From: an uncultured Lachnospiraceae bacterium
GTDB taxonomy: Bacteria; Bacillota; Clostridia; Lachnospirales; Lachnospiraceae
Assembly (NCBI GenBank): GCA_902766735.1
Contig: CACXEU010000007.1
Span: 62,509-126,508, forward strand
DNA: 64,000 bases
Direction of reading: 5' to 3'
Part shown: piece after piece, positions 23,051-42,168 of the stretch
Numbering within the stretch: position 1 is the stretch's first letter
Layout: the number at the start of each line of letters is the position of its first letter
Position numbers and translations under genes: made by a program
The notes under the pieces: generated by a model
What the model was told of the DNA's origin: nothing
Seen by the model: the letters and a program-made list of their open reading frames with translations, nothing else
The model's database searches: none

Positions 23051-23097
23051 TCGTTTATAAACGCGATAGTGTCGCATATCAAGAGGAGGACAAAATA

Positions 23098-23871: not shown

Positions 23872-23894
23872 GAATAAAAAATGCGACATGTTAA

Positions 23895-23928
23895 AATGGT
23901 CAGTTCGTAAGGACTGGCCATTTTTTTT
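23895..23928 (+). terminator. Rho-independent terminator
   Basis: Stem aatggtcagt (23895-23904) / actggccatt (23913-23922) followed by T8. Confidence 0.7.
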
Positions 23929-24135
23929 GCACAAAAAGGGTTCGCAGGGAGGATGAAAAAAGGAACACTAGATTTAGTTGGATAAAAATCTTTTTATTCT
24001 AGATGTGGTAATTGCAAAAAAACACGTGACAAAAAATTGGTAAAATAGTTTATTTTTGTCATAATTCCATAAATGGATAAATAAGTTATAGTAAAAAATT
24101 CACAAGAGAAATGAAGCTTAAAACGTTTTTTGTTG

Positions 24136-24164
24136 TTGATTTGTACATATCTCTGTGATAAAAT
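24136..24164 (+). promoter_or_regulatory. Putative extended -10 promoter for the SBP gene
   Basis: -35 ttgatt (24136-24141), 17-bp spacer ending in tga, -10 taaaat (24159-24164). The palindrome aaaacgtttt (24120-24129) lies just upstream. Confidence 0.4.
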
Positions 24165-24232
24165 GTTTTCAAGAATATCACTATGTGGATTCTAATGTAA
24201 GTGAAATTTTTTCGACAAGGAGGAGGATAAAA

Positions 24233-25915
24233 ATGAAAAAATTTAGTCGCAAGGCATTAGCTTTTTCTATGGCCGCAGTTGTTGGTACGTCTATGGTGAT
24301 GACAGGATGTGGCGGATCTAAAGGAGGCTCACAGGGAAGCGGTAAAAGCTCAAAATTAAGTGAAACAAAAACAAATTTAGGAGCTACAAATTTAAAAGAT
24401 AAAGAAATCAAAGGTGATGTATCAATCATGGTATGGTCTGGTGACGGAAAATATTATGAAGATATGGGACATCAGGAATTAAGACCAGAAGATATTACAG
24501 CTAGTAACGTTGCTCAAGTATATGCTGTTGCTCATAAGTTCAATGAAACTTATCCGAATATTAAAATTAACCTTTGGTCTAAGGAAGGTGATCCTGATCA
24601 GGTTGGAACACCTACTTGGGAACAGGAAATGGAAAACTTTAAGGCTACATATGGAAAGTATCCAGATATCTGGGCATCAACAGATGTACCAAACGATATC
24701 AAGAAGGGTCTTGTAGCTGATCTTTCCAAATATAAAGATGACGAAACATATAAGGCTTACAACTCAAACCTTATGGATAACTTAAACTATTATGGATTCC
24801 AGGCAGGTCTTCCATCTTACACAATTCCTGCTGGTATCTGGATTAATAAGTCATTAGCATCTAGTAAGAATATCTCTATTCCAGAACCGGATTGGGATAT
24901 TGATGATTATACAGAATTTGTTGCAAACACTGACCACTCAAGCTATTGGGGAAGTAAAGGTACTGCATCAAGTATCGTAGATATTGGAACTACTACAATT
25001 AACAAGCAGATTAAGGAATCCGGTACTGTTGATATTAACAGTGATGAAGTTAAGAGCTTACTTTCATACATGAACGAATGGTCACAGTCTACTGTTGATA
25101 CAGATAACGGTGCAGGAAATGTATCTCTTGAAATTATGAAAGAATGTACAGACTATGCATGGTATTTCTTCACAAAGAACAGAACATTAACAAACTTTGA
25201 AAATCCTTGGTATATCACAGCTGCAGCAGATGATTCTGCTTCACAGTCTGACGATTATGTGAATGCAAGTGATTGGGATATTTATCCATACCCATCTACA
25301 GATTACTGTGATAACACAATCAAGGTAGTAATGGACCCTATCTGTTTACATAACTATGCTTCAGATGATAACAACAAAGAATGGAGCGATGAAGAATCTA
25401 AAAAGCTTGATGCGACTTATGCATTCGCTACATACTGGACTGCTAGTACAGAAGCAAAGAAAGCAATCTTTGATCAGCAGTATACAGATGGATCAGAAAT
25501 CAAAGAAACAACAACTGGTGACTCGTTCCCAGTAGTAACAGATCAGGCATTTGATGAACAGATGGAAATCTGGAACAATGTTGAAGCTCACAAGGTTTAC
25601 GAAAGTAAAGAAGGATGGCAAAAAGTTCTTGAAATCTGGAAATCTGAAAAATATTGGGATTATGCAGATAAGTGTGCCCCACTTAGCATCACAGAAAACG
25701 GTGAAAAAACACCTTGCTTATATGAATGGATTAACAAGTGGGATGAAGAAGTTGCCGGATCTTGGATGACAGATAAGAACTGGGTTGATAATGTTAAGTC
25801 AAGACTTGCTGACTGGAACACTAAGATTAACGAACGTCTTGCAAAGGCTCAGGATCAGTTAAAGAGTGCTCTGAAAGACAACTATGGAATGACTGATGCA
25901 GACTTTGAGAAATAA
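24233..25915 (+). CDS. Large ABC-transporter solute-binding lipoprotein (CUT1-type, oligosaccharide)
   Basis: Start at MKKFSRKALAF (RBS aggagga). Lipobox MTGC. ~560-aa mature protein with an SBP family-1-like N-terminus (VSIMVWSGDG...INLWSKEGDP). Confidence 0.75.
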   Translation: MKKFSRKALAFSMAAVVGTSMVMTGCGGSKGGSQGSGKSSKLSETKTNLGATNLKDKEIKGDVSIMVWSGDGKYYEDMGHQELRPEDITASNVAQVYAVAHKFNETYPNIKINLWSKEGDPDQVGTPTWEQEMENFKATYGKYPDIWASTDVPNDIKKGLVADLSKYKDDETYKAYNSNLMDNLNYYGFQAGLPSYTIPAGIWINKSLASSKNISIPEPDWDIDDYTEFVANTDHSSYWGSKGTASSIVDIGTTTINKQIKESGTVDINSDEVKSLLSYMNEWSQSTVDTDNGAGNVSLEIMKECTDYAWYFFTKNRTLTNFENPWYITAAADDSASQSDDYVNASDWDIYPYPSTDYCDNTIKVVMDPICLHNYASDDNNKEWSDEESKKLDATYAFATYWTASTEAKKAIFDQQYTDGSEIKETTTGDSFPVVTDQAFDEQMEIWNNVEAHKVYESKEGWQKVLEIWKSEKYWDYADKCAPLSITENGEKTPCLYEWINKWDEEVAGSWMTDKNWVDNVKSRLADWNTKINERLAKAQDQLKSALKDNYGMTDADFEK

Positions 25916-25934: not shown

Positions 25935-25963
25935 GCGGAACTGCCTAACGTAGTTCCGCTTTT
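25935..25963 (+). terminator. Rho-independent terminator after the SBP gene
   Basis: Stem gcggaact (25935-25942) / agttccgc (25952-25959) plus tttt. Confidence 0.6.
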
Positions 25964-26040: not shown

Positions 26041-29000
26041 ATGAAGAAGAAAATCATTACTACATTAATAGCCATAGCGTGTATTATCGCTGTCGTCATT
26101 TGTCTTTTCCAGTTTGTGTTCAAGAAAGATTCTGTATATATTGAAGATGCCAGTGCATCAGATGTGCAGTGGGCATATGATTTGCTTGCAAATTCATATC
26201 TTGAAGAAGGTGAACAGCCAGAATCATATTATACAGATTATATTAAGGAACACACCAATCTGGGTGAAGGCGAATATACATGTGAGCTGGAAGATGGTAT
26301 TTCTCCACAGGAATATTTAACACAGAACAGCGAGCAGATTAAAAAAGAAACTACCAGCGAAGATATTATCGCGGCTATGAACGGATACGAGTCTCCGATT
26401 ACAGTGTTGGATTATAACAAGAGTGCCTACTATTATGTAGATGTGGAAAAGGCAGGCATGTATACACTGAGCATTGACTATATGTCTACGGGAAATTCGT
26501 TATCCGATTTTACTGTGTCTGCGAAAGTTAACAAGCAGCAGCCTTATTCAGAAATGAAGACCATTGCATTACCATTGCAGTGGACAGACGTAGATGATTA
26601 TAAGGATTATGTAGGAAGCGAAACAGAAAAAGCATTCGATACAGATAGTTATGGTGATGAAATTGCATTGCCACAGAATAAGATAGTAGATTGGTTTACA
26701 AATGTTCCGCTTTATAACAATACCTATGTTTCTGCAACACCGCTTCAGTTCTATTTAGAAGCAGGAAAAAACGAAATCATGATTACGAACGTTTCATCCA
26801 GTGGCCTTGCATTAGGTAATCTGCTTGTAAAAGCTCCGGAAACAGTTGAAAATTACAAAAAATATGAGGACTATGTAAAAGAACATCAAAATGCTGATTT
26901 GATTACAGATCCGGAAGATGCAATTCAGATTGACTCCGTTTCTTATTCGAAAAAAAATACAATTGATGCGATTTACGGTTCATCAGCAAAAACTTCACTT
27001 ACAAAATACGACATAGATAATAAGAAGATAAATACATTGGAATGGCAGGGAGCCGGAACAGATGTAACATATACATTTGAAGTAAAGAAACCGGGAAATT
27101 ATCATCTTGCTTTCCATTATTCAAATGAAAAGAAGGAATTCCAGACGTTTGAAACAATTGCTATTGATGGAGTAGTTCCGTTCGCAGAATTATTCAATTA
27201 TTCATTCGCACCGGTAACTTCAGGTTACGCTAACGAAGTTCTTTCTACTAAGGAAGGAGAACCATTTAAGTTCTTCTTAGACTCCGGCGTACATACCATC
27301 ACAATTAAACAGGAAAACGAACCGGTTATGGAAGCATACCGTTATGCGTCTATGCTTCAGAAACACGTTACTGATTTTGAATTGGAAATCACAAAGATTA
27401 CCGGTAGTAACGTAGATGAAAACAGAAACTGGAAAATGACAAACTACATCAAGGATACAGAAAATTATCTGAAAGCTTATAAGATTCTGTTACAGCATAT
27501 CCGATTCCTTCTTCAGGATTATTCTGAAAATGGAAGTAACGGAGCAATCCTTGCATACTTAGACGAAGCTGCACAGTATATCAATAACATCAGTAAATAT
27601 CCGGATGATATTGCACTACATAAAGTAGATTTGACAGGTGCTGATAACTCAGTTCTGGTTTCATTAAGTAAATTTACAACAGATGTAACTTCTAATAAGT
27701 TTACATTGGATAGAATTTATGTATATGGTGATGAGGATATCTTAGAAAGTCCAAATACCACATGGTACAGCTCTTTATGGACAGGAACCATGGCATTGGT
27801 TAACACCTATACATCAGAAAAGTATTCTGCTGAAATTCCGGATGATGGAGAAACAATCACCATTTGGGTAAACAGAGCGATTACTCACGTTGACTTACTT
27901 CAGAAGATGGCAGATACAGAATTCGTAAAATATTATAAAGAAAAGACAGGCAAAGATATCAAGGTTAAAGTTGCAACCATGCCGGATGTAAATAAGATTA
28001 CATTAGCAATTGCAGCGGATGAAGAACCGGATATTGCTCTAGGATTAATGTCATATGTACCATTCGACTTATCAAGCCGTGGTGCTTTATATGACCTTTC
28101 TCAGTTCGATGATTTCTGGAGCGTGGCAAACAGATTCCCATCAGGATCTTTTGTATCCTATGTATATAATGATGGAATGTATGCAATTCCGGAAACAACA
28201 GACTTTAATGCAGTAGTATATCGTACTGATATTTTTGATCAGTTAGGTGTAGAATGTCCTGAAAACTGGGATGAATTAATTGAAATCCTTCCAACTCTTC
28301 AGAGATATGGAAAGAACTTCTACCATAACATTGCACAGGGTGCAACCGGTTATAAGTGGTTCTACCAGACAGCACCAATGATCTTACAGAACGGTGGACA
28401 TCTGTATGAACAGGATCCTACAACAGGTCGTGTTACAACAGGAATTGATTCTAAGAATGCGGTTAAGGGATTACAGCTTTTAGGAGACTTATTCACAAAG
28501 TACTCTCTGGAAAAATCAATCAACTCATTCTTCAACTCATTCCGTTATGCAACAGCACCAATTGGTATTGTGGGAATGGAAGATTACACATTGATTAAGA
28601 ATGGCGCTCAGGAATTAAATGGTAACTGGGAATTAATGCCATACTTATATACACAGAATGAAAATGGCGAAAAGAACGCCAGCTTCGTAGCAAACGGAAC
28701 CGGTGGTGTTATTTTCAAAGATTCTGAAATGAAGGATGAAGCTTGGGAATTCCTGAAATGGTGGACAGGTAAGGATGCTCAGACAGAGTATACTCAGACA
28801 CTTCGTTCCACATACGGAAAGACCTTCTTCTGGTTATCTGCTAATAAGGCAGCATTGGAAAACAATCCAATGGATGAAAAAGACAAGAGAACAGTTATGA
28901 GTCAGATTGATTCGGTAACAGACGTTCCAAGAACACCGGGTCAGTACTTGTTGGAAAGAACAATTTCTAATATTTGGACAACCATGGTATTTGACGGTAC

Positions 29001-29241
29001 ATCTGCTCAGGTTGCAGTTGATGAAGCAAAGTCAGATGTAAACAAAGAAATTGTACGTAAGATGCAGGAGTTTGGATTCTATGATGCAAACGGAGATATG
29101 GCAAAGGGTCAGAACTTTGTACTTCATGCAGATGCGAAAGCATGGATTGAAGAACAGATGGCTAAGGCAACTCCGGAAGAAGATCAGATGCCTGTAAACA
29201 ACTATAAAGAAACGGAGGTGGAAGACGATGGCAGCGAGTAA
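26041..29241 (+). CDS. TM-anchored 1066-aa protein: two beta-sandwich (CBM-like) modules fused to a C-terminal family-1 solute-binding domain
   Basis: N-terminal single TM (ITTLIAIACIIAVVICLF) with no lipobox. Two related segments (GMYTLSIDYMSTGNSLSDFTVSAKVN and GNYHLAFHYSNEKKEFQTFETIAIDG). The C-terminal ~500 aa is SBP-like (ITIWVNRAITHVDLLQKMADTEF...DIALGL). Confidence 0.7.
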   Translation: MKKKIITTLIAIACIIAVVICLFQFVFKKDSVYIEDASASDVQWAYDLLANSYLEEGEQPESYYTDYIKEHTNLGEGEYTCELEDGISPQEYLTQNSEQIKKETTSEDIIAAMNGYESPITVLDYNKSAYYYVDVEKAGMYTLSIDYMSTGNSLSDFTVSAKVNKQQPYSEMKTIALPLQWTDVDDYKDYVGSETEKAFDTDSYGDEIALPQNKIVDWFTNVPLYNNTYVSATPLQFYLEAGKNEIMITNVSSSGLALGNLLVKAPETVENYKKYEDYVKEHQNADLITDPEDAIQIDSVSYSKKNTIDAIYGSSAKTSLTKYDIDNKKINTLEWQGAGTDVTYTFEVKKPGNYHLAFHYSNEKKEFQTFETIAIDGVVPFAELFNYSFAPVTSGYANEVLSTKEGEPFKFFLDSGVHTITIKQENEPVMEAYRYASMLQKHVTDFELEITKITGSNVDENRNWKMTNYIKDTENYLKAYKILLQHIRFLLQDYSENGSNGAILAYLDEAAQYINNISKYPDDIALHKVDLTGADNSVLVSLSKFTTDVTSNKFTLDRIYVYGDEDILESPNTTWYSSLWTGTMALVNTYTSEKYSAEIPDDGETITIWVNRAITHVDLLQKMADTEFVKYYKEKTGKDIKVKVATMPDVNKITLAIAADEEPDIALGLMSYVPFDLSSRGALYDLSQFDDFWSVANRFPSGSFVSYVYNDGMYAIPETTDFNAVVYRTDIFDQLGVECPENWDELIEILPTLQRYGKNFYHNIAQGATGYKWFYQTAPMILQNGGHLYEQDPTTGRVTTGIDSKNAVKGLQLLGDLFTKYSLEKSINSFFNSFRYATAPIGIVGMEDYTLIKNGAQELNGNWELMPYLYTQNENGEKNASFVANGTGGVIFKDSEMKDEAWEFLKWWTGKDAQTEYTQTLRSTYGKTFFWLSANKAALENNPMDEKDKRTVMSQIDSVTDVPRTPGQYLLERTISNIWTTMVFDGTSAQVAVDEAKSDVNKEIVRKMQEFGFYDANGDMAKGQNFVLHADAKAWIEEQMAKATPEEDQMPVNNYKETEVEDDGSE

Positions 29242-30172
29242 ATATGTTGAAGTTGCAGAGCAGGTTGGAAAGAAAAAATTCACTGACAGAAATGGCTTCC
29301 ACGTATTCGTATTATTTTTACCATACGGATTATTATTCTTTACATTTATTTTCTTACCTATCGTAATAGGTATGGGATTATCATTTACATATTTTGATGT
29401 TATTAACACTCCGACATTTGCAGGAATGAATAACTACATTACATTGCTGACAGGTGATGAAGTGTTTATGAAATATGTATTACCGAACACGATTCTTTAC
29501 GCAATCGTCGTAGGTATCGGAGGATATATTTTATCCTTCCTTATGGCATGGATTTTGGCACAGGTTACACCGCGTGCCAGAACAATCTATGCATTGTGTA
29601 TGTACATTCCGTCTATGTCAGGTCAGTTGTTTATTCAGTATGTATGGAAGTTAATCTTCTCTGGTGACCAGAGTGGTATCGCAAATGCATACTTAATGAA
29701 ACTGGGATTGATTAGTCAGCCAATACAGTGGTTGATTTCATCAGATTACTTTATGCAAATCATGATTTTCGTATCCTTGTGGTCATCAATGGGTATCGGA
29801 TTCTTGTCAATGCTTTCAGGTATCATGAATATTGATCAGGAATTATATGAAGCGGCATATGTTGACGGAATCAAGAACAGAGCGCAGGAAATTATTTATA
29901 TTACAATTCCATCCATGAAGCCGCAGATGTTATTCGGTGCGGTAATGTCCATCGTAGGTGCATTCAACATGGGTTGGCTCGGTGTTGCTTTGGCAGGTGC
30001 AAACCCAACACCGGATTATTCCGGACAGTTAATTGCAAACCATATCGACGACTATGCCTTTGTACGATATGAAATGGGTTATGCTTCAGCAGTTTCCGTT
30101 TCATTACTGGTACTTGTATGGATTTGTAGTAAAGTAGCCAATAAGTTATTTACAGAAAAAGACGAATATTAG
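29228..30172 (+). CDS. Sugar ABC transporter permease (MalF/CUT1 type)
   Basis: 6-TM pattern and EAA loop YEAAYVDGIKNRAQEIIYITIPSMKP. Overlaps the upstream gene by 14 nt. Confidence 0.85.
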   Translation: MAASKYVEVAEQVGKKKFTDRNGFHVFVLFLPYGLLFFTFIFLPIVIGMGLSFTYFDVINTPTFAGMNNYITLLTGDEVFMKYVLPNTILYAIVVGIGGYILSFLMAWILAQVTPRARTIYALCMYIPSMSGQLFIQYVWKLIFSGDQSGIANAYLMKLGLISQPIQWLISSDYFMQIMIFVSLWSSMGIGFLSMLSGIMNIDQELYEAAYVDGIKNRAQEIIYITIPSMKPQMLFGAVMSIVGAFNMGWLGVALAGANPTPDYSGQLIANHIDDYAFVRYEMGYASAVSVSLLVLVWICSKVANKLFTEKDEY

Positions 30173-30188
30173 GAAGGAGGATATAAAA

Positions 30189-31058
30189 ATGGCAAATTTT
30201 CAGGGCAATAGAATTAACCCAAGTAGATTTTCCAGGGGACAAATCAAGTTTCATGTGATTGCATTACCATTGTCAATCCTGATGCTTATTCCGGTTATAT
30301 TCCTCTTCAGTAATGCGTTTAAACCGCTGGGAGAATTATTTAGATTCCCTCCATCGATATTCGTTTATAACCCAACCTTGGATAACTTCAGAAACTTATT
30401 AAACTTAGCAGGTTCTACAGGAATTCCAATGTCAAGATATTTCTTGAATACATTGTTTGTAACTGTATTAACCGTAATCTTAAATATTATTATTTCCATT
30501 ATGGGTGCTTATGTATTCTCTAAGAAGAAATTTAGAATCAAGGGCGCTTTATGGGAAATTAACCAGGCAGCTTTGATGTTTATCGCTACAGCTGTTGCGA
30601 TTCCAAGATACTTAATCATTGTAAACATTGGAGCGTACAACACATGGTTTGCACATATCCTTCCGTTGATTGCCGCACCGGTTGTTTTATTCTTGGTAAA
30701 ACAGTTCGTTGATGGTATTCCGGATGCGTTAATTGAAGCAGCCGTTGTGGATGGGGCAGGAGATGCCATCATCTTAAGAAAAATCATTATCCCTCTTGCA
30801 AAACCGGCTCTTGCTACATCAGTCGTGTTGACATTCCAGCAGGTATGGGGAAATGTGGAAAGTTCAAACAATTACATTACTAGTGAATCATTAAGAACAT
30901 TGACATATTATGTAAACTCAGTAGGAACGAACAATGCTGTGGCAGCTGCAGGTATGATGGCAGCAGCACAGTTGGTAATGTTTATTCCAAACCTCATTAT
31001 CTTTATCTCAATGCAGTCTAAGGTAATGAACACAATGAGTCATTCAGGTATTAAGTAA
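30189..31058 (+). CDS. Sugar ABC transporter permease (MalG/CUT1 type)
   Basis: EAA loop IEAAVVDGAGDAIILRKIIIPLAKP. RBS aggaagga. Confidence 0.85.
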   Translation: MANFQGNRINPSRFSRGQIKFHVIALPLSILMLIPVIFLFSNAFKPLGELFRFPPSIFVYNPTLDNFRNLLNLAGSTGIPMSRYFLNTLFVTVLTVILNIIISIMGAYVFSKKKFRIKGALWEINQAALMFIATAVAIPRYLIIVNIGAYNTWFAHILPLIAAPVVLFLVKQFVDGIPDALIEAAVVDGAGDAIILRKIIIPLAKPALATSVVLTFQQVWGNVESSNNYITSESLRTLTYYVNSVGTNNAVAAAGMMAAAQLVMFIPNLIIFISMQSKVMNTMSHSGIK

Positions 31059-31069
31059 GGAGGCAGTCG

Positions 31070-33172
31070 ATGAAAAAAGAAATGAAAAAATCATTAGTGC
31101 TGCTTCTGGCACTAACGTTTACAATGTTATCTGTGTTGACTGTAGCTGCATCGCAGGCGACAAGTTATTCCTATACATTAGATGATGAAGGGGAATACGT
31201 AAGAACACAGGATGCGTACCTTCCTGACAGAACAATTACTTCTTTAGGATTAAGTGATCCGGAAGATATGTTAATTGAGCAGAATGCAAAGGGAGAAAAC
31301 ATCCTTATTATTGCGGACACAGGACATAAAAGAATTTTGATTTATAACTTGGATACAGAAAAAGTGATTAATACGATTGAAGTATTTTCCGTATCCGGTC
31401 AGGAAACAAGATTTTCTTCTCCAAAGGGAATTTATCTGACAGCAAAAGGAGATTTATATGTAGCGGATTCCGCTGCAAAGACGGTTTATCGTTTTAAGAA
31501 ACAGAACGATAATTATGATTTCTTCTTTACAAGACAGTATGACAGACCAACAGCTCCAATTTTTGATGAATCTGCTTCATCAAACTACGAGCCGAGTAAG
31601 GTCGCTATTGATAGTGGTGAAAACCTTTACATTGTTTCAGAAGGTAACTACAACGGTATTATTCAGTTAGCAAACTCAGGAGAATTCCTTGGTTACTTTG
31701 CAGCAAACCTTACGAAGTTAACACCACAGCAGGCATTTTTGAAATTAATCTACACAAGAGAACAGGAAGAAAAGTCAGAAGTTTTGAATACCCTTCCATC
31801 AACATTCTCAAATGTATATGTAGACCATGCCGGAACGGCTTACTCAGTAAGTATGGGTACCGGAGACAATTTGTTAAAGAAACATAGTACAGATGGTTCA
31901 AACCTTTATAAATCTGTTGTTTGTTCAGGGAATATGACAGATGTTACTGCTGATGAGGATGGTATTGTTTATACCTCTGACGTACGTGGTTATATCAATG
32001 TTTATACTCGTGATGGAGAAATGATTTTCAGCATGGGTGAAGCAGTTCAGGGAATGGATATTTCCGGATTGTTCTCAAGCTTGACAACCATTGCGGTAGA
32101 TAACAAAGGAAATATCTGGACTGCAGATGGAGAAAAGGGATATATCCAGTCATTTGTTCCAACAGAATATGCAGAAACGATTTTCAAGGCATTGAAGGAA
32201 TATGAAAATGGTGATTATGATTCGGCCATGGAAGACTGGAATACAGTACTTCGTTTGAACCAGATGTCGGTATTAGCACATAATGGTGTTGCAAAGGCTT
32301 ATTACAATGATGAAGATTACAAACCGGCTATGGAACATTTTGAAATTGCCGGAAACAGAGATGGTTATTCCAATGCATTCTGGGAAGTACGAAATGTAGT
32401 TCTGAAAAAGTATATTGGACCATTCTTACTTGCACTTGTAATCTTATTCATCTTGAAAGTCTTAATTGGAGTAATTGACAGAAATGATGTTATTCCAAGA
32501 AAGAAGAAAGCTCTGGGCGAGAAATTAAAGAACGTTCCGGTTCTTGGAGAAATTGGATATGCCTTTAAGTGTGCAAGACATCCGATTGAAAGATATTATG
32601 ATATCCGTGTTGGAAAGAACGGTTCCATGATTGCAGCAACCGTTATTTACATTGTATTCTTTGGTGTATATATGCTGTATCAGACTGGTAAAGGATTTAT
32701 TTATCAGTACACAGATGTTGAAGATATGGATATGGGAGCCGTAGTTATCGGTTTCTTTGCAATCCTGATTCTGTTTATTGTATGTAACTTCCTTGTTACA
32801 TCTATCACAGATGGTGACGGAACATTAAAACAGGTATATATGATTCCGGCTTATGGTGTAATGCCTGCAATGTTTGCAATGTTGGCAACCATCGGATTAT
32901 CTTATGTACTTACCTATAATGAAGCATTTATTTTGACAGTTATTATGATTGTTGGTGTGGGCTGGTCTATCGCAGTTATTTTTGAAGGACTGGCAACCGT
33001 ACATGATTATGATTTTAGCCATACGGTATTAAGTTTGATCATTACATTTGTATTTATGCTGATTGCCGCAATTGTAGTATTGGTAGTAATTATTATGTGG
33101 GAACAGTTATACGACTTTATTTTAACGGTAGGAAAGGAGATTGTAAGAAATGTTACAGGATCAGAAAGTTAA
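31070..33172 (+). CDS. Signal-peptide protein with NHL/beta-propeller-like repeats, a TPR-like segment and a C-terminal 5-TM Yip1-like domain
   Basis: Repeated G-x-[LI]Y[VI]-x-[DS] motifs (GDLYVADSAAKTVYRF, ENLYIVSEGNYNGIIQL, GIVYTSDVRGYINVY, GNIWTADGEKGYIQSF). TPR-like ALKEYENGDYDSAMEDWNTVLRLN. The C-terminal ~260 aa carries 5 hydrophobic helices. Confidence 0.65.
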   Translation: MKKEMKKSLVLLLALTFTMLSVLTVAASQATSYSYTLDDEGEYVRTQDAYLPDRTITSLGLSDPEDMLIEQNAKGENILIIADTGHKRILIYNLDTEKVINTIEVFSVSGQETRFSSPKGIYLTAKGDLYVADSAAKTVYRFKKQNDNYDFFFTRQYDRPTAPIFDESASSNYEPSKVAIDSGENLYIVSEGNYNGIIQLANSGEFLGYFAANLTKLTPQQAFLKLIYTREQEEKSEVLNTLPSTFSNVYVDHAGTAYSVSMGTGDNLLKKHSTDGSNLYKSVVCSGNMTDVTADEDGIVYTSDVRGYINVYTRDGEMIFSMGEAVQGMDISGLFSSLTTIAVDNKGNIWTADGEKGYIQSFVPTEYAETIFKALKEYENGDYDSAMEDWNTVLRLNQMSVLAHNGVAKAYYNDEDYKPAMEHFEIAGNRDGYSNAFWEVRNVVLKKYIGPFLLALVILFILKVLIGVIDRNDVIPRKKKALGEKLKNVPVLGEIGYAFKCARHPIERYYDIRVGKNGSMIAATVIYIVFFGVYMLYQTGKGFIYQYTDVEDMDMGAVVIGFFAILILFIVCNFLVTSITDGDGTLKQVYMIPAYGVMPAMFAMLATIGLSYVLTYNEAFILTVIMIVGVGWSIAVIFEGLATVHDYDFSHTVLSLIITFVFMLIAAIVVLVVIIMWEQLYDFILTVGKEIVRNVTGSES

Positions 33173-35849
33173 GAAAATTAAACATATCTCTGTGGCAGTA
33201 TTTGCATTTATGACTCTTTCTGTTGCCGTTGGTGTCGGTGCAGCATTTTTGAATACCAATAGAGATACAAGACCGGTACCGGAGCGGGTTGAATCCGCAA
33301 TGGAGTATACAGATGCTTACACAGAATTATGTACAGTAGGTGATTATAAATATCTTTTCTTTGAAGAGAAAGATATTATTGCAGTAGAAAACGTAAAGAC
33401 CGGTTGGGTGTGGAAAACCGGTTTGGACGTTCCTTCCATTGATACTATCAAGGATGGAAGAAAGAAATTAAAGAGATGTCAGGAAGATATCTTGGCATTA
33501 AAGGGCAAAGCGAAAGTTTCCGACAAAGGAAAAACGGAAGACGAAGTTATTAAGGCAATCATTGAAAAGATTGAAAAAGGTGACGTAAAGATTGAATCTG
33601 ACACATATACAGGCTTTACTGGATTTGCCAATAAGAACAATATGTCTCCGGTAGAACTGATGGACTTCATTGAATCAACAGATTCCTCATTCCAGTCTGA
33701 TCAGTTCGTAGACTTTGCAAACTCCCTGATTACCGTTGAGTATTATGAAGGTAGCGGTGACAACACAATGGTACAGAAGGCATCTTCCGCACCATGTGAT
33801 GATGACACTGCATCCAGCTTGACTGTAGTAGATGAAAGCACACATAAATATAAATTACAGTGTGAATTTAAACTGGGAGCAAAGGCTGAAAAATTAGGAG
33901 TTAATGTTTATCTTACATTTAATGAAGATGGAACAATCAACTTCCAAATCCCTAATAAAGAAATTTCCGGGGAGAATGCTAGGAAGAAGTTAAAAGATAT
34001 TATTGTTGCACCATTCCTTGGAGCAAGCGGTGGTATTTTAAACTATTTCGATGGAAAAGGATATAACAAGGCGGAAATTCAGGATGTTACACCGGGTTAT
34101 GTATTTGTACCGGATGGAAGTGGAGCGTTAATCCGTTTTGCAGCAAACAGTGCAACCTTTAATGAGTACAGTGGTGATGTATACGGTACTGATCCGGCAA
34201 CAACTTTACACCATTATGCTCCGAACCAGGACGAAGGTGTTTCACAGAACGTGGTACCTTTAAAGAACCCTACAATGCCTGTTTATGGTATTTCACAGGG
34301 TGATGGCACACAGGCCGCATTTTTGGCATATGCAGATTCTGGGGATGAATATATGAGTATTCATGTATTACCTGAATCTACTCAGCCAAAGCAGAATGCT
34401 TATACCTATGCTTATGCATCATTCCTGTATAATAGCGAATATTATCAGGTTACTAACCAGCAGGGTGATGCTTATAGAAAGACACAGGATAAGTTAAACG
34501 ACTTTGATGTAGACTTTACAATTCAGTTCTTATCCGGCGACGGAAGCGATGGGACTCCATCTGCTGATTATGCGGGAATGGCAAAAGCATATCGTGAGCA
34601 CTTGATTGACAAGGGTGCTCTTACAGAAGTTCAGCAAGGCTATGAGAGCATTCCACTTCGAATTGACTTCTTAATGTCAGATTCCAAGAACGGTGTATTC
34701 TCAACAAAGGAAGTTGCCGTAACAACAGCAGATGATGTTAAGAGTATTTTAGAGCAGATTAGTGACAATGGAATTTCAAACATTAACTCAGGATTAATTG
34801 GATGGCAGAGTGGTGGAGAAACATTATCAAAGCCAAACAGCACAAGCTTCTCAAGCACAATTGGTTCTGAAGGAAACTTCGCAGATGTTATGGGTGCTTT
34901 GAAAGATAAGGGAATTGACGTTTCCTTCTCCAGAGAATTTGTAACAATCAATGAAGACATGATTTCATATTATAGCAATGCTGCAAAACACTTAAGCACA
35001 CAGTATATGGAATTAGATCGTTCCGAAGTTCTTCCATCAAACTGTCCGGTAACAGAATATGGCTACGCATTGCCAGAAAAGAGTGCTGAATGGTTGAAGG
35101 ATTTATATGGTGATTTAGGTGACTTAAGCGATTCCATCACAATTGATGGTATTTCAAATAAGTTAATCAGCTCGTATACAAGTAATAAGGAAAAAAGAAC
35201 AACAGCAGTTGATACAATTAAGTTATATCAGGATGCAGTAAAGAGCATTAAGGATAACGGAACAAAGATTAATATGGTTAATCCGAACAAATATATGTGG
35301 CAGTATACAGACAGATATCTCCAGTCTCCGATTGGAACATCTCAGTATGTATACGAAACAGATACTGTTCCATTCCTTCAGATGGTTCTTCATGGAACAA
35401 TGGAAGTTTATGCTCCATATGCAAACTTCTCATTCTATTCCAACAATGATATGTTACGAATGATTGATTATAATGCGAGTCCATCCTTCGTTTTAACAAA
35501 GCAGCCATCATATCTTTTAGCTGCAACAGCATCAGCTGACTACTATTCAACAGAATATGAGCAGTATAAGGAATTGATTAACACAATTTATACAACAGTA
35601 AACAAACCATTATCAGAGGTTGTTGATTACAGCTGGGATTCCAGAACAGTATTTACCTGGGATGGAAGTAAGTTAGTTCAGAAACCGGATAATGGAGAAG
35701 AAGCAACTGGTGGTGTTATTGCAAACCAGTATTCAAAAGATGGAACTATTAAAACAATTATTATTAACTACACAGATGAAGACATCGTGGTTAATGGTGT
35801 GACAATCGCAGCAACAAGTGCTGGAGTAGTTGAAGGAGGTGTTGAATAG
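33150..35849 (+). CDS. Signal-anchored 899-aa extracytoplasmic protein, DUF5696-like (function unknown)
   Basis: N-terminal TM (ISVAVFAFMTLSVAVGVGAAF). RBS aaaggag. Overlaps the upstream gene by 23 nt. I see no catalytic motif I can assign. The DUF5696 call comes from memory of similar neighbourhoods and is unverified. Confidence 0.55.
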   Translation: MLQDQKVKKIKHISVAVFAFMTLSVAVGVGAAFLNTNRDTRPVPERVESAMEYTDAYTELCTVGDYKYLFFEEKDIIAVENVKTGWVWKTGLDVPSIDTIKDGRKKLKRCQEDILALKGKAKVSDKGKTEDEVIKAIIEKIEKGDVKIESDTYTGFTGFANKNNMSPVELMDFIESTDSSFQSDQFVDFANSLITVEYYEGSGDNTMVQKASSAPCDDDTASSLTVVDESTHKYKLQCEFKLGAKAEKLGVNVYLTFNEDGTINFQIPNKEISGENARKKLKDIIVAPFLGASGGILNYFDGKGYNKAEIQDVTPGYVFVPDGSGALIRFAANSATFNEYSGDVYGTDPATTLHHYAPNQDEGVSQNVVPLKNPTMPVYGISQGDGTQAAFLAYADSGDEYMSIHVLPESTQPKQNAYTYAYASFLYNSEYYQVTNQQGDAYRKTQDKLNDFDVDFTIQFLSGDGSDGTPSADYAGMAKAYREHLIDKGALTEVQQGYESIPLRIDFLMSDSKNGVFSTKEVAVTTADDVKSILEQISDNGISNINSGLIGWQSGGETLSKPNSTSFSSTIGSEGNFADVMGALKDKGIDVSFSREFVTINEDMISYYSNAAKHLSTQYMELDRSEVLPSNCPVTEYGYALPEKSAEWLKDLYGDLGDLSDSITIDGISNKLISSYTSNKEKRTTAVDTIKLYQDAVKSIKDNGTKINMVNPNKYMWQYTDRYLQSPIGTSQYVYETDTVPFLQMVLHGTMEVYAPYANFSFYSNNDMLRMIDYNASPSFVLTKQPSYLLAATASADYYSTEYEQYKELINTIYTTVNKPLSEVVDYSWDSRTVFTWDGSKLVQKPDNGEEATGGVIANQYSKDGTIKTIIINYTDEDIVVNGVTIAATSAGVVEGGVE

Positions 35850-37054
35850 TGGATGAAAATCAATTAACACCTAAGCAGCCAACTCAGTTAGATGATGCGG
35901 TTGAGAAGGTAGTAAGTAATTCAGAAGAAACAATTGGGGAAGCTACGAAAGTAGTGGAACCAATTGAAGAAACTGTAAAGGAAACTGTAGCGGAACCGGT
36001 AAAAGAGGAACAGACTTCAGCTTCGAAAAAAGAAAAGAAAAAGAAGATGCGTACTTATCAGCAGAGACAGGACAGAAATGGATATCTGTTTATGGCACCT
36101 TGGATTCTGGGATTCGTAATCTTCACATTGTACCCATTCATTATGACAATTATCTTAAGTTTCAGTGCGGTAAGCTCTACTGCATGGGGCTACAAGAGAG
36201 AGTTCATTGGAGTGAAAAACTACATTAATGCGTTCGTCGGAAACCAGGAATTCCTGCCGGCATTGTTAGGATATCTTAGAATGATTATTCCATACACATT
36301 TATTGTAGTAGTATTATCATTTATTATCGCGTACCTGTTAAATAAGATTAATGTAGGAAAGGGAATCTTAAGAACAATTTATTTCCTTCCGGTTATTATC
36401 ATGTCGGGTCCGGTAATGCAGCAGTTATTAACAGCCCAGGGTAAGGCTGATGCTGCATCAGCAGCTGCAACAGCAGCAAAAACAACAACAAATGCATATT
36501 CCAATATTTTCATTATGCAGATTATTGAGAGTTATTCCAGACCTTTAGCAAACGGTTTGGCAGGAATTTTCGATCAGCTTTCCGTAATTCTTTGGTTTAC
36601 TGGTATTCCAATTGTATTATTTATCAATGGTTTACAGAAGATTAACCCAAGTATTTACGAAGCAGCGAAAATCGATTCTGCAAATGCATGGCAGATTATG
36701 TGGAAAATCACAATCCCGATGTTAAAGGGTGTCGGATTAATTATCACAGTCTTCACAGTGATTCAGTTGGGTATGTTTGATTCAATTAACCCAATGTACA
36801 AGTTGATTGAAGAAAAGACCGGTGACTTAAGCGCAGGACTTGGATTCGCAGCAACTTATGCATGGATTTACAGTGTAATCGCTCTTTTGATTATCGGTAT
36901 CATCTTCCTGTTATTTAAGGATAGAACTCCGAAGGATATTAAAGCAAGAAAGAAACAGGAAAAGAAATTAAAGAAACTTGATAAGTATCAGAAGAGAAGA
37001 TTGAAAGCTCAGAAGAGACATCAGGCAAAGGAGGCAAAGTTATATGGAAAATAA
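35849..37054 (+). CDS. Sugar ABC permease (MalF type) with acidic N-terminal extension and K/R-rich C-terminal tail
   Basis: The GTG start shares 1 nt with the upstream TAG stop. EAA loop YEAAKIDSANAWQIMWKITIPMLK. ~75-aa acidic N-terminus, and the tail KARKKQEKKLKKLDKYQKRRLKAQKRHQAKEAK. Confidence 0.75.
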   Translation: MDENQLTPKQPTQLDDAVEKVVSNSEETIGEATKVVEPIEETVKETVAEPVKEEQTSASKKEKKKKMRTYQQRQDRNGYLFMAPWILGFVIFTLYPFIMTIILSFSAVSSTAWGYKREFIGVKNYINAFVGNQEFLPALLGYLRMIIPYTFIVVVLSFIIAYLLNKINVGKGILRTIYFLPVIIMSGPVMQQLLTAQGKADAASAAATAAKTTTNAYSNIFIMQIIESYSRPLANGLAGIFDQLSVILWFTGIPIVLFINGLQKINPSIYEAAKIDSANAWQIMWKITIPMLKGVGLIITVFTVIQLGMFDSINPMYKLIEEKTGDLSAGLGFAATYAWIYSVIALLIIGIIFLLFKDRTPKDIKARKKQEKKLKKLDKYQKRRLKAQKRHQAKEAKLYGK

Positions 37055-38000
37055 AAATGAAGTGGCAAAGAAGCGTAGCCTTCCTTCATTGAAGAATATC
37101 AACTTTGCCAGATTAAAGAAATTAAAAGCAGTACAGTTTGTATCAAAATTTATGATTTATTTTGTATTGATTTGTATCGGTTATGTATTTTTAAGTCCAA
37201 TCTTTGAAATGCTTGCAAAGTCAATCATGAATGAAGCAGACTTGATTGATCCATCGATTACATGGATTGCAAAAAATGCAACATTTGAGAACTTTAACAA
37301 CGCAATTAAGCAGTTAGATGTTCCATCATCATTGATTAACTCAATCTGGTTCTCCGCATTATTAGCGGTTGGACAGACTTTTGTATCAGCAACTACAGGT
37401 TTTGCATTATCAAGATACACATTTAAGGGACGTAATATCTGGTATATCATGTTAATCTTAGCGTTTATTTTACCGGTTCCATTACTTACTATCCCACGAG
37501 TTATGATGTTTACCGATTTAAATACATATACAGGTATTAACTTAATGAATTCTATCTGGCCACAGTTCTTTATGGCATTGTTAGGTCAGGGAACTTATTC
37601 AACTATGTTGATTTTGATTTTCTATAACTTCTTTAATATGATTCCGAAATCATTAGATGAAGCTGCTATGATTGACGGTGCCGGTTCATTCCGCGTATTC
37701 TATCATGTGGCAATTAGATTATCATTATCTACGATTTTAGTAGTATTCTTATTCTCATTCGTATTTAACTGGAATGAGACATATTCAACAAGTATCTTCT
37801 TAAGAGATGCGGTAGACTTACTACCTGGAAACTTAGCTTCTTTCGATAATGGAGCTGCTACAGGTGGAGCAAATGCATTGAATGAAGCACAGCGTATGTC
37901 AGCAATTTTAATTTCTATCTCACCGCTGTTAGTATTGTACTTATTTGTACAGAGACAGTTCATTCAGGGTATTGAAAATACCGGTATTACCGGTGAATAA
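37044..38000 (+). CDS. Sugar ABC permease (MalG type)
   Basis: EAA loop DEAAMIDGAGSFRVFYHVAIRLS. Overlaps the upstream gene by 11 nt. Confidence 0.8.
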   Translation: MENKNEVAKKRSLPSLKNINFARLKKLKAVQFVSKFMIYFVLICIGYVFLSPIFEMLAKSIMNEADLIDPSITWIAKNATFENFNNAIKQLDVPSSLINSIWFSALLAVGQTFVSATTGFALSRYTFKGRNIWYIMLILAFILPVPLLTIPRVMMFTDLNTYTGINLMNSIWPQFFMALLGQGTYSTMLILIFYNFFNMIPKSLDEAAMIDGAGSFRVFYHVAIRLSLSTILVVFLFSFVFNWNETYSTSIFLRDAVDLLPGNLASFDNGAATGGANALNEAQRMSAILISISPLLVLYLFVQRQFIQGIENTGITGE

Positions 38001-38047
38001 AATGTGTAGTCGGGCAAGGCACCGATGTGCCTGCCCATATGCACATT
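38001..38047 (+). other. Intercistronic GC-rich stem-loop (attenuator or RNA-stability element, no U-tract)
   Basis: Inner stem gggcaaggcac (38012-38022) / gtgcctgccc (38027-38036) with one bulged A. Outer stem aatgtg (38001-38006) / cacatt (38042-38047). Confidence 0.4.
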
Positions 38048-38087
38048 AGAGAAACTTGTAAAAAATGAACAGAATAAGGAGAGTCAA

Positions 38088-39533
38088 ATGAAAAACAAAA
38101 AAAGATTTTTAGCAATTATGATGGCAGTCGTTATGAGTGTTGCTACTTTTGCTTCAACACCGGCTGTAACAACACAGGCCAAGGTGAAGATTATCGTTGG
38201 AAAGAAACTAAATCTTTCCATTGGCGAATCTGAATATGTAGTAGCAAAAGGAAAAGGAGTAACCTATAAATCCAGCAATAAAAAAATTGCGACTGTAAAC
38301 AAAAAAGGTTTGGTCGTGGCAAAATCTGCTGGAAACTGTAAGATTACTGTAATGCAGGGCGGCAGCAAAGCTACTGCAAAGGTAAATGTTACACCGGCTA
38401 AGGTTAAGATTCAGTCTGTTGCAACAGTAGGTTCTTCTAGTGGAGAGAGCCTTGCACAGAAATTAACTTTAAAGGTGACCTGGAAGAAAGCAAAAAATGT
38501 TTCCGGTTATTATGTATACTATGCAACCTCAAAGAATGGAAAATATACAAAGAAAACTGTAAAGGGAGCAAAGAAAACGAGTACAACTCTTACAAATCTT
38601 GTATACGGAAACACATACTTTGTAAAAGTAAAGGCTTATGGTGGAAAAAAGAAAGTTGCCAGCAAGGAAGATTCCAAAGTTTTATCTGTAAAGACCTATA
38701 AAAAGGTATGGTCTGATGAATTTAACTACACAGATAAGAGCAAGTTATTGGATAACTGGAGTTACGAAGTAGGACATGGTGATCCATATGGCTGGGGAAA
38801 TAGGGAATTAGAGCACTATACTGATAATGGAGAAAATGTGTCATTAAATGGTAGCGCATTAGTTATCCAGCCTAAGAAAGAAACCATTCAGTGCGGTGGA
38901 AAATCAGTTACAGAATATACATCTGCCAGAATGATTTCCAGAGGAAACCGAGAATTTCAGTACGGAAAAATCGAATTCCGCGCACAGCTTCCATCAGCAC
39001 AGGGTACATGGGCTGCATTATGGATGTTAGGAAACTTTAAGGATGATAAAGGAAACACGGTTGGATGGCCGGATTGTGGAGAAATTGATATTATGGAAAC
39101 ATTGTCGAATACAAAAACCGGTTTATTCCAGTTAGACAAGATTCCTCAGACAATTCATTGTAGAAAATATAATGGAATGTCATCCAGTTCAGGACCAAAG
39201 CATCATGATTCCATCGTTAAGGGGTCTACCACCGGATATCATACATATGGTATTGAGTGGAACGAAAAACAGATTGATTTTTATATTGACGGAAAGAAGA
39301 CATGGACTTACTCTCCAAGTCAGTACGTGACAAAGGGAGATGGAACAGACGATCCTCAGAAGTGGCCGTATAAGCATAATTTCTACCTTCTTATGAATGT
39401 TGCCATTGGCGGAACCTTGGGTGGTGGAATTATTGAAGAGGACGGAAGTATCAAAAAACATGTTGTTTATGATAATGAAGTTACCGGCGTGAAAGGTCAG
39501 ATGAAAGTCGACTATGTCAGAGTATATCAGTAA
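38088..39533 (+). CDS. Secreted GH16 endo-beta-glucanase (laminarinase-like) with Big_2 and lysine-rich FN3-like modules
   Basis: Start at MKNKKRFLAIMMAVV (RBS aaggagag). Big_2-like YKSSNKKIATVNKKGLVVAKSAGNCKITV. FN3-like VTWKKAKNVSGYYVYYATSKNGKY...YFVKVKAYG. GH16 catalytic motif GEIDIME (ExDxxE). Confidence 0.85.
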   Translation: MKNKKRFLAIMMAVVMSVATFASTPAVTTQAKVKIIVGKKLNLSIGESEYVVAKGKGVTYKSSNKKIATVNKKGLVVAKSAGNCKITVMQGGSKATAKVNVTPAKVKIQSVATVGSSSGESLAQKLTLKVTWKKAKNVSGYYVYYATSKNGKYTKKTVKGAKKTSTTLTNLVYGNTYFVKVKAYGGKKKVASKEDSKVLSVKTYKKVWSDEFNYTDKSKLLDNWSYEVGHGDPYGWGNRELEHYTDNGENVSLNGSALVIQPKKETIQCGGKSVTEYTSARMISRGNREFQYGKIEFRAQLPSAQGTWAALWMLGNFKDDKGNTVGWPDCGEIDIMETLSNTKTGLFQLDKIPQTIHCRKYNGMSSSSGPKHHDSIVKGSTTGYHTYGIEWNEKQIDFYIDGKKTWTYSPSQYVTKGDGTDDPQKWPYKHNFYLLMNVAIGGTLGGGIIEEDGSIKKHVVYDNEVTGVKGQMKVDYVRVYQ

Positions 39534-39652: not shown

Positions 39653-41038
39653 ATGAAAAAAATGAAGAAAGTAATGTCTGCTGTATTAGTAGTGGCAATG
39701 GTTGTTGTTATGTTTGCTGCTACACCGGCTGTTACAGCACAGGCAAAAGTAAAAATTCTTGCCGGAAAAAAATTGACCCTTGCGGTAGGTGATTCAGATT
39801 ACGTATTAGTAAAGGGAAAAGCTACTTACAAAACAAGCAATAAGAAAATTGCGACTGTTTCTAAAAAAGGTGAAGTAAAAGCGAAAGCGGTAGGAACCTG
39901 TAAAATTACAGTAACTCAGAATGGAAGTAAAGCGACAGCTAAAATCACTGTTGTACCTGCAAAGGTTTCTCTCAAGTCTGTAGTTGTATCAGGAAAGAAC
40001 AGCGCAGAAACACTTGCATCTAAGGCAACCATTTTGGCAACATGGAAGAAGGCAAAAGGTGCTTCCGGTTACTACGTATACTATTCCACATCAAAAACAG
40101 GAAAGTATACAAAGAAGACTGTAAAGGGAGCAAAGAAAACAAGTCTTTCCATTAGTGGCCTTGCATATGGAAAAACCTATTTCGTAAAGGTAAAAGCTTT
40201 TGGCGGAAAGAAGAAAACTGCAAGTACGGCTTATTCAAAAGTTCTTTCAGCAAAGACGTATTTAATGAAGTGGAATGATGAATTTAGCGGAACCGCAATT
40301 GATTCCACAAAGTGGCATACAGAAGGAGCTACAGGTGCAGGCGGTTACGGAAATAAGGAATTACAGAATTATCAGCCAGAGTATGCAAAAGTTGAAAATG
40401 GTAGTCTTGTAATTATGCCGGAATTTAAGTGGAACAAAGCTACAGGCACTGCAGTAAAAGATTCCTATTACTCAACAAAACTTTGGACAAGAGGAAAACA
40501 TTCTTTCAAATATGGTAAGTTTGAATTCCGTGCAAAACTTCCAAAAGGACAGGGAACATGGGCTGCATGTTGGATGTTAGGTAATAACAACTCATGGCCA
40601 ACATGTGGTGAAATCGACGTATTAGAAACTACATCGCAGTTAGCAAAGACAAAGATTCCACAGACCATTCATTGTGAAAAATATAATGGAATGGGAACAA
40701 GTTCAGGTCCAAAACATTATGACACAATTGTTCCGACTGCTACATCAGCATTCCATACTTATGGTATCGAGTGGACAGAAAGCAAGATTGATTTCTACAT
40801 TGATGGAAAGAAGACCGGAACATATGATCCGAACAATTATGACTTGAATAACAAAGGAACATCAAGAAATGATATCTGGCCGTACAAACAGCCGTTCTAT
40901 TTAATTATTAACTGTGCAATCGGTGGAACATTGGGAGGAAATCCTGGAACAGCTTACTGGACAAAGATTGCTACGAACGGAAATATTGAAACATATCAGG
41001 ATTATATGTATGTTGATTATGTAAGAGTATATCAGTAA
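39653..41038 (+). CDS. Secreted GH16 endo-beta-glucanase paralogue (Big_2 + FN3-like + GH16)
   Basis: Same architecture as the upstream gene. GH16 motif GEIDVLE. RBS aaaggagga. Confidence 0.85.
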   Translation: MKKMKKVMSAVLVVAMVVVMFAATPAVTAQAKVKILAGKKLTLAVGDSDYVLVKGKATYKTSNKKIATVSKKGEVKAKAVGTCKITVTQNGSKATAKITVVPAKVSLKSVVVSGKNSAETLASKATILATWKKAKGASGYYVYYSTSKTGKYTKKTVKGAKKTSLSISGLAYGKTYFVKVKAFGGKKKTASTAYSKVLSAKTYLMKWNDEFSGTAIDSTKWHTEGATGAGGYGNKELQNYQPEYAKVENGSLVIMPEFKWNKATGTAVKDSYYSTKLWTRGKHSFKYGKFEFRAKLPKGQGTWAACWMLGNNNSWPTCGEIDVLETTSQLAKTKIPQTIHCEKYNGMGTSSGPKHYDTIVPTATSAFHTYGIEWTESKIDFYIDGKKTGTYDPNNYDLNNKGTSRNDIWPYKQPFYLIINCAIGGTLGGNPGTAYWTKIATNGNIETYQDYMYVDYVRVYQ

Positions 41039-42106: not shown

Positions 42107-42168
42107 GTTAAAGAATGCTTTTGCATTTAAATAAATTTAATACAAATAACATTCACAAGGAGATTATT

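Follow-up and report, generated by a model that had tools for sequence, protein, structure and literature searches.

Within a 64,000-nucleotide stretch of DNA from an uncultured Lachnospiraceae bacterium (GenBank assembly GCA_902766735.1, contig CACXEU010000007.1, positions 62,509 to 126,508), hereafter the window, seven closely packed plus-strand genes encode a module of ATP-binding cassette (ABC) permeases and large membrane-associated partner proteins. The first gene (26041-29241) encodes a 1066-amino acid (aa) solute-binding protein (SBP) with a Pfam SBP_bac_1 domain and an N-terminal hydrophobic helix. It is followed by permease A1, which is MalF/UgpA-like (29228-30172; BPD_transp_1; EAA loop at residue 208), and permease A2, which is MalG/UgpE-like (30189-31058; BPD_transp_1; UgpE/GlcU NCBIfam matches; EAA loop at residue 183). 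Next come a 700-aa NHL/TPR/Yip1 protein (31070-33172), recognized by Pfam matches and hydropathy, and an 899-aa DUF5696 ectoprotein (33150-35849), recognized by its PF18952 match, an AlphaFold2 (AF2) model, and Foldseek searches. The core closes with the divergent MalF-like permease B1 (35849-37054; EAA loop at residue 271) and the MalG-like permease B2 (37044-38000; BPD_transp_1; UgpE/MalG NCBIfam matches; EAA loop at residue 206).

Successive core genes overlap by 14, 23, 1, and 11 nucleotides or are separated by gaps of 16 and 11 nucleotides, a GGAGG-like ribosome-binding site stands ahead of each of the seven starts, and translational coupling between core genes is present in the window. 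The open reading frames (ORFs), overlaps, and gaps lie exactly where an earlier first-pass annotation of this DNA had placed them, and each of its domain names was confirmed by our Pfam scan. Its central proposal, a single tightly coupled module of two permease pairs and two large nontransporter membrane proteins, was borne out and proved to be evolutionarily coherent. An Rfam scan detected no structured RNA in or near the module.

The Seven-Gene Core Is Conserved across Clostridia and Bacilli

Scanning one genome per species with an alignment of DUF5696 gave 228 relatives; the best 79 loci of the 228 were analyzed, and their ORFs were searched with the window proteins. The full colinear seven-gene core was found in all 61 close (Lachnospiraceae) loci with enough flanking DNA, and the same core order was found in all 10 distant loci, which are at 24 to 30% identity and have different neighbors. 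Gene order was unchanged in 71 of 71 loci from two bacterial classes, Clostridia and Bacilli; this conservation is far from chance. Each of the seven core positions shows one-to-one orthology across the two classes, and the overlap between the Yip1 and DUF5696 genes is retained at other loci too. Neighborhoods of a large SBP, a Yip1 protein, and DUF5696 in Firmicutes, which the first-pass annotation mentioned, are real and very widespread. Carriers of the core include human-gut Eubacterium genomes, rumen Lachnospiraceae metagenome-assembled genomes (MAGs), and Paenibacillus and related Bacilli (from soil where a source is recorded), with Eubacterium segne BX4, Eubacterium album LFL-14, Anaerotaenia torta DSM 100431, and Paenibacillus cellulosilyticus KACC 14175 among the cultured strains.

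Among related loci with at least 8 kb of downstream DNA, glycoside hydrolase (GH) family 16 genes are present in 57 of 66 and GH161 genes in 52 of 66. Elsewhere the module is flanked by other carbohydrate-active enzymes (CAZymes) and partners: GH43 and a two-component system in Butyrivibrio fibrisolvens; GH26, GH113, and GH9 in Cohnella; GH2 and GH38 in Neobacillus; GH30 and GH35 in two MAGs; and GH95, GH10, and an esterase on a metagenome contig. On a second metagenome contig, an ordinary SBP and a protein weakly resembling carbohydrate-binding module (CBM) family 65 lie downstream, and the module of MAG L088 has no CAZyme within the available DNA. Two paralogous whole modules can occur in one MAG, as do L070 and L089 (CANQPH...) and L074 and L078 (CAJTVB...), and the partners of L070 and L089 differ, being GH16/GH161 and GH30/GH35, respectively. 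The suggestion that the module is a β-glucan machine holds for the clade of the window, where GH16, GH161, and GH94 lie beside it, but not for the core as such, given the other CAZymes elsewhere; the threading of long chains also suggested there is hypothetical.

Two Paenibacillus modules, one on a plasmid of Paenibacillus cellulosilyticus (L084) and one in Paenibacillus (L093), have LLM-type monooxygenases and ABC exporters as neighbors. Both contain an in-operon MsmK-type ATPase followed by several LLM/luciferase-like monooxygenases and further SBPs, with no glycoside hydrolases, and in L093 ABC exporter genes also follow the module. The substrate of the Paenibacillus-type module may not be an ordinary glycan.

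Two Solute-Binding Proteins

The SBP_bac_1 domain of the 1066-aa protein spans residues 618-914 (E = 3.5e-26), and hydropathy places a single hydrophobic helix at residues 5-23, in agreement with the N-terminal transmembrane (TM) anchor proposed in the first-pass annotation. Its PDB matches are SBPs for β-gluco-oligosaccharides (CbpB, 7e-13; Lin1841, 1e-12). Because homology to the Paenibacillus and Butyrivibrio orthologs covers residues 115-1022, the N-terminal stretch of about 550 aa is part of the large-SBP family. This region gave sub-threshold matches to CBM35, CBM6, and Golvesin_C at two equivalent positions in seven of eight orthologs, together with a sub-threshold GH115_C match at the first position only, and a BLASTP comparison of its two halves was not significant (E = 0.16). 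A duplicated β-sandwich, as first proposed for this region, was not evident in the BLASTP comparison but is partly supported by the recurrent weak CBM35/CBM6 matches, which suggest that the N terminus comprises two CBM6/35-like modules.

The first-pass annotation counted this SBP alone and overlooked a second, conserved gene on the plus strand at 24233-25915, which encodes a divergent lipoprotein SBP (lipobox ...VMTGC in translation). A profile built from 15 of its orthologs matches four solved family-1 sugar SBPs (22hh, 2e-11; Lmo0181, 6e-8). The gene lies directly upstream of the core in all 57 related loci with room for it and is the eighth gene of the module in this clade. A small separate SBP is found in or beside most, not all, of the sampled modules, and the assignment of either SBP to permease pair A or B is putative.

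Between the lipoprotein SBP gene and the core lies a GC-rich hairpin with a T-run (25935-25959, plus strand; 10-bp stem, -15.6 kcal/mol, tail TTTTGTG), and its pattern GCGGAAC...GTTCCGC-TTTT recurs across the Eubacterium clade. Hairpins of this kind commonly separate an SBP gene from permease genes for differential expression, and the one described here is probably an intra-operon attenuator or mRNA stabilizer.

Farther upstream, a 278-aa ORF (23035-23871) has no Pfam or NCBIfam match and precedes the lipoprotein SBP gene only among the closer relatives sampled (L001, L005-L032, and L068), not in the distant ones. Just after it, the intergenic region 23872-24232 contains a strong hairpin with a T-run that the terminator-scan list does not include.

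Two Anciently Diverged Permease Pairs and a Missing ATPase

Pfam matched BPD_transp_1 in three of the four permeases (A1, A2, and B2); B1 had no Pfam match with E ≤ 0.01 and weak matches to UgpA/GlcT/MalF-type NCBIfam models. The EAA coupling loop (EAAxxD/G) is clear in all four, and the earlier assignment of four MalF/MalG-like permeases stands. Orthology is position specific: A1 matches A1 of other modules with 307 bits compared with about 30 bits between A1 and B1, and B1 is a one-to-one ortholog of B1 in distant modules. The best conserved part of the module is A1, with 40-50% identity to its counterpart in distant modules; where the partners of two modules differ, A1 and A2 retain 37-50% identity and the other parts 24-35%. 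Pairs A and B are old, anciently diverged paralogs. A recent tandem duplication of one importer was considered and rejected, given the roughly 30-bit A1-B1 score and the orthology of each pair across classes. An exporter or biosynthetic role was likewise rejected, since permeases of the BPD_transp_1 type that work with SBPs are importers and the genes alongside serve catabolism.

The acidic N terminus and K/R-rich tail noted for B1 in the first-pass annotation are both real but are confined to the Eubacterium clade and so are clade-specific. Close relatives, among them L025, L027, L028, L030, and L031, have cytoplasmic N-terminal extensions on B1 of anywhere from about 12 to about 260 residues. 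Most, not all, of the closer Eubacterium-type relatives have the K/R-rich tail, which is about 40 aa long, and the more distant loci lack it.

No ABC ATPase is encoded in the window, as the first pass had stated: a phmmer search with an MsmK/UgpC-type ATPase had no match at E ≤ 10, and the LSGGQ motif is absent. This absence, presented at first as a peculiarity, is ordinary. CUT1 loci beside GH161 genes commonly lack an ATPase of their own and share one encoded elsewhere (PMC6484121), and in three Bacilli loci (Paenibacillus and Neobacillus) an MsmK/UgpC-type ATPase gene lies directly upstream of the large SBP.

The NHL/TPR/Yip1 Protein

Pfam detected NHL in the 700-aa protein with 43.5 bits (cut-off 20), along with SGL and TPR (TPR_11) matches, and Yip1 (PF04893) at residues 505-668 with 53.5 bits (cut-off 28.6). 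Hydropathy indicates a signal peptide and a single TM helix ahead of the five Yip1 helices, which lie between residues 518 and 675. The secreted propeller-like/TPR-like ectodomain fused to a five-TM Yip1 domain, as first described, is upheld. An AF2 model of the protein reached a predicted local distance difference test (pLDDT) score of 48 and a predicted template modeling (pTM) score of 0.43, from a 23-sequence alignment whose homologs are 72-100% identical, and the propeller blades are not countable in it. In Butyrivibrio, Cohnella, and several MAGs, two overlapping genes encode the NHL and Yip1 parts separately; in Butyrivibrio the split falls after the first TM helix, and the NHL/TPR part keeps its own TM helix. 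Because the two parts are split in some lineages and fused in others, they are likely to work together, and Yip1 may have a scaffold role. A Yip1-family protein, YknW, is the extra (fourth) component of the Bacillus ABC system YknWXYZ (PMC4887032).

DUF5696 Has a Predicted Glycosidase Fold

The 899-aa protein matches DUF5696 (PF18952) over model positions 10-611 of 612 (E = 1.8e-135; 453 bits against a cut-off of 25.6), and hydropathy shows one N-terminal helix, the membrane anchor. The family is large: at E ≤ 1e-3 it has 4,104 cluster representatives at 50% identity. The first-pass annotation named no catalytic motif in the ectodomain. It is nonetheless not featureless: an AF2 model built from 41 sequences (pLDDT 78.5, pTM 0.83) shows an N-terminal membrane helix followed by a β-sandwich that contains a helical insert, a (β/α)8 barrel spanning about residues 474-821, and a C-terminal β-sandwich. 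In a Foldseek search of the PDB, its nearest structures belonged to GH129 (5opq, 4.6e-22; 5wzn, 1.3e-18; target TM-score 0.69-0.70), followed by GH101 at about 1e-15 and then by GH36, GH31, and GH97. The model predicts that the protein has a GH129/GH101-like glycosidase fold, at a sequence identity of about 10% to those structures.

Sequence comparisons did not place the protein in any of these families. Neither phmmer nor a profile search found anything among PDB sequences, Pfam reported DUF5696 only, with no GH129 or GH101 membership, and an hhalign comparison of the family with Escherichia coli YicI (GH31) gave a probability of 0.6% and no mapping of catalytic residues. One of 32 divergent DUF5696 members matched Glyco_hydro_101 at E = 0.041. 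As to placing the protein in a known GH family, which the first-pass annotation had raised as a challenge to its proposal, the challenge partly applies: the predicted fold is that of a glycosidase but membership by sequence is not there, and in the loci sampled DUF5696 was not seen outside the module context or apart from the permeases.

Within the β-glucan clade the invariant polar residues of the barrel are R504, D506, K513, W552, Q553, R595, N708, N713, R722, Q732, D738, Q744, E752, N759, D773, N775, and E802, and these vary between clades. The sole carboxylate invariant across the DUF5696 family is D322, in the motif PDGSG; at positions 511, 738, and 773 the residue is D or E in all or nearly all members, and the family-wide invariants of the C-terminal domain include Y861, N873, and Y874. 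The pattern fits a substrate-tuned pocket combined with a conserved core or interface and appears compatible with both a true glycosidase and a binding pseudo-enzyme; catalytic activity of DUF5696 is putative. No mention of DUF5696 or PF18952 turned up in the 7.7 million open-access PMC papers and the bioRxiv preprints searched, where a Yip1/NHL partner of a sugar ABC importer is also undescribed, in keeping with the original view that the module lacked a described function.

The Core Lies in a β-1,3-Glucan Utilization Locus

Downstream of the core, on the same strand, are genes for a secreted GH16 laminarinase with Big_2 and fn3 modules (38025-39533; PDB laminarinase 3iln, 2e-42) and a second secreted GH16 enzyme with the same modules (39653-41038), both recognized by Pfam. 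They are followed by a LacI-family regulator (41102-42106; Pfam LacI and Peripla_BP_3), which is present in most related loci, a GH161 β-1,3-glucan phosphorylase (42115-45348; PDB 9qqk "GH161A," E = 1.5e-242), and a GH94 laminaribiose phosphorylase (45626-48322; PDB 6ggy, E = 0, 1049 bits). A plus-strand gene for a GH17-like protein (48373-49281; Pfam Glyco_hydro_17, E = 3e-7), which co-occurs in several related loci, is probably the last gene of the locus. A hydropathy scan of the GH161 protein found no TM segment, and both phosphorylases are presumably cytoplasmic. With the two GH16 genes, the ABC system, LacI, GH161, and GH94 on one strand within 25 kb, the arrangement is that of a Gram-positive polysaccharide-utilization locus (PUL). 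The locus serves β-1,3-glucan (laminarin) utilization in a spore-forming member of the Lachnospiraceae. SipL is encoded in the window, and the nearest relative, by tblastn, is the Eubacterium sp. MAG RUI373, which is 98% identical at the DUF5696 protein. A search of the intergenic regions for a shared LacI-type operator palindrome gave nothing convincing.

Several other features of the window were recorded. The 277-nucleotide intergenic region between GH161 and GH94 contains a 28-nucleotide inverted repeat (45370-45397 and 45520-45547; 93% complementary, arms 122 nucleotides apart) that may form a large stem-loop or represent a small inserted element. Immediately downstream of the glucan locus, a 968-aa ORF (49608-52514) and a 387-aa ORF (52682-53845) match no Pfam family above the curated cut-off. 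A Tad/Flp-type pilus set at 54854-61295 encodes an A24 prepilin peptidase, an RcpC/CpaB-like protein, a ParA/TadZ-like ATPase, and a T2SSE/CpaF-type ATPase, the last followed by two more ORFs. A T-box leader (3943-4231; 125 bits) and a SAM riboswitch (7340-7442; 76 bits), both on the plus strand and well above the Rfam gathering scores, are unrelated to the module.

A Proposed Accessory-Expanded Glycan Importer

On balance, we consider that the region probably encodes an accessory-expanded CUT1-family ABC glycan importer with two translocators, built on an ancient, substrate-independent seven-gene core that in this Eubacterium-type genome is dedicated to β-1,3-glucan and supplemented by the lipoprotein SBP. 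The secreted GH16 laminarinases would cleave laminarin-type glucan outside the cell, and the anchored CBM-SBP and the lipoprotein SBP would catch the fragments at the membrane. There DUF5696, beside the translocators and perhaps positioned by the Yip1 protein, would bind or trim the fragments. Translocators A1A2 and B1B2 would import the products, each driven by a shared MsmK-type ATPase encoded elsewhere, and inside the cell GH161 and then GH94 would phosphorolyse the imported oligosaccharides to glucose-1-phosphate and glucose. The strict synteny, the translational coupling, and the split-and-fusion pattern of the NHL and Yip1 parts lead us to infer physical assembly.

Several observations weigh against this importer. 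The Paenibacillus-type modules adjoin monooxygenases rather than glycoside hydrolases, so a glycan substrate may not hold family-wide, and the lipoprotein SBP gene could be transcribed separately, given the hairpin that follows it. The one invariant carboxylate of DUF5696, D322, lies outside the barrel by predicted secondary structure, the other conserved acids swap between D and E, and neither sequence nor profile links the family to any GH. The family-wide invariants in the C-terminal β-sandwich fit an interaction surface equally well as catalysis. The association of the parts in one complex is itself read from gene-level data.

A bolder form of the proposal, which we advance tentatively, is that the core may form a single supercomplex in the membrane, the Gram-positive equivalent of the Bacteroidota utilisome, retuned across Bacillota for many glycans. 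A Yip1-type NHL/TPR scaffold would then hold the GH129/GH101-fold ectoprotein and the CBM-bearing SBP over two ABC translocators, long glycan fragments would pass from binding through processing to import without release, and the ectoprotein would either found a new family of glycosidases or act as a receptor of the pseudo-enzyme kind.

The most serious alternative, although we regard it as unlikely, is that the genes cluster only through related functions: DUF5696 would be an anchored glycosidase of a new family, the permeases two independent importers with their own SBPs, and the NHL/Yip1 protein a separate entity. The predicted glycosidase fold is what such an explanation would expect, as are two SBPs to match two permease pairs, and some sources already name DUF5696 homologs "glycoside hydrolase." Gram-positive PULs, moreover, routinely group enzymes with transporters (PMC6484121, PMC10318527). 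It accords poorly with an order kept at every one of the 71 loci, in two classes, at 24-30% identity, and while substrates change. Synteny that strict usually marks the subunits of one assembly. The nontransporter genes also always lie between the permease pairs and are translationally coupled to them, and DUF5696 keeps to the module wherever it was sampled.

A second alternative, in our judgment improbable, turns on the conservation pattern of DUF5696 and makes it a noncatalytic pseudo-glycosidase, anchored by Yip1, that acts as a glycan receptor or dock for pair B in the role of an SBP. It occupies an SBP-like position (X-permease-permease) before B1B2, with a 1-nucleotide overlap with B1, and the single strictly invariant carboxylate and the family-wide invariants of the C-terminal domain are in keeping with such a role. 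The position equivalent to the GH31 nucleophile is also not conserved, though the underlying alignment is not significant. Pair B could, however, be served by the separate small SBP in or beside most modules, type I ABC importers are not known to have a non-SBP docking partner, and the conserved acids of the barrel (D/E at 506, 511, 738, and 773) are compatible with catalysis. That the module is mainly a sensor, in which the large SBP and the NHL/TPR/Yip1 protein detect glycan and signal to a regulator with transport secondary, is very improbable: Clostridia are known to have SBP-like sensor proteins, the NHL and TPR domains serve in interactions, and some modules are flanked by an AraC-type regulator or by a histidine kinase with a response regulator, but Pfam and NCBIfam find a signaling output domain in none of the seven proteins, the type of regulator varies (LacI, two-component system, or none) while the core is constant, all four permeases keep their ATPase-coupling loops, and some taxa have an in-operon ATPase.

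Comparison with Known Systems

The systems closest to the proposed importer are CUT1 (TC 3.A.1.1) importers such as MalEFG-MsmK, the Listeria innocua Lin1841 β-1,2-glucan system, and those associated with GH161 and GH94 (PMC6484121). With them the module shares a family-1 SBP and MalF/MalG-type permeases with EAA loops, and in such systems, as probably here, the ATPase is often encoded elsewhere; with the CUT1 loci of Gram-positive PULs it also shares nearby extracellular endo-glycanases, cytoplasmic phosphorylases, and a LacI regulator. Unlike CUT1 importers, it has two anciently diverged permease pairs rather than one, an SBP of about 1000 aa whose N-terminal part includes a hydrophobic anchor and a conserved extension of about 550 aa, and NHL/TPR/Yip1 and DUF5696 proteins invariably inserted between the permease pairs. 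Bacillus YknWXYZ resembles the module in that a Yip1-family membrane protein, there YknW, is encoded with an ABC system (PMC4887032). In contrast to the module, YknXYZ is an exporter of the MacB type that includes a membrane-fusion protein, gives protection against the SDP toxin, and has no SBP-dependent import (PMC4887032), YknW lacks the NHL/TPR ectodomain, and YknWXYZ has no glycosidase-like partner.

For the ectoprotein, the relevant comparison is with GH129, represented by the α-N-acetylgalactosaminidase NagBb (5wzn) and the Zobellia 3,6-anhydro-D-galactosidase (5opq), and with the endo-α-N-acetylgalactosaminidases of GH101. The predicted succession of β-sandwich, (β/α)8 barrel, and β-sandwich is shared with GH129/GH101, with Foldseek E-values from 1e-22 to 1e-15. 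DUF5696 differs from them in being membrane anchored and, in the loci sampled, always in an ABC operon, and in sequence, at about 10% identity, with no position assigned to a catalytic Asp/Glu pair. Moreover, GH129 and GH101 act on α-linkages, whereas the substrates associated with DUF5696 are β-linked glycans.

In the SusCD utilisome of Bacteroidota, a transporter core is combined with surface glycan-binding proteins and a glycosidase, is reused with different enzyme sets, and can occur as several paralogs per genome. The likeness to the module is one of concept only, as the proteins are unrelated and assembly in the module is conjectural; SusCD is located in the outer membrane and is TonB dependent, whereas the module would act at the cytoplasmic membrane and be ABC powered.

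The building blocks of the module are all of known kinds, and their conserved seven-gene architecture is undescribed in the open-access literature and preprints named above. If the parts act together, they would represent a new transporter architecture and would give a first function to the bacterial Yip1/NHL proteins and to DUF5696, the latter probably as a new CAZy family, and the module is directly testable in the cultured carrier strains. Gram-positive glycan uptake is usually drawn as one SBP and two permeases, whereas the chassis found here is much larger, invariant, widespread, and reused with many enzyme sets in gut, rumen, and soil bacteria.

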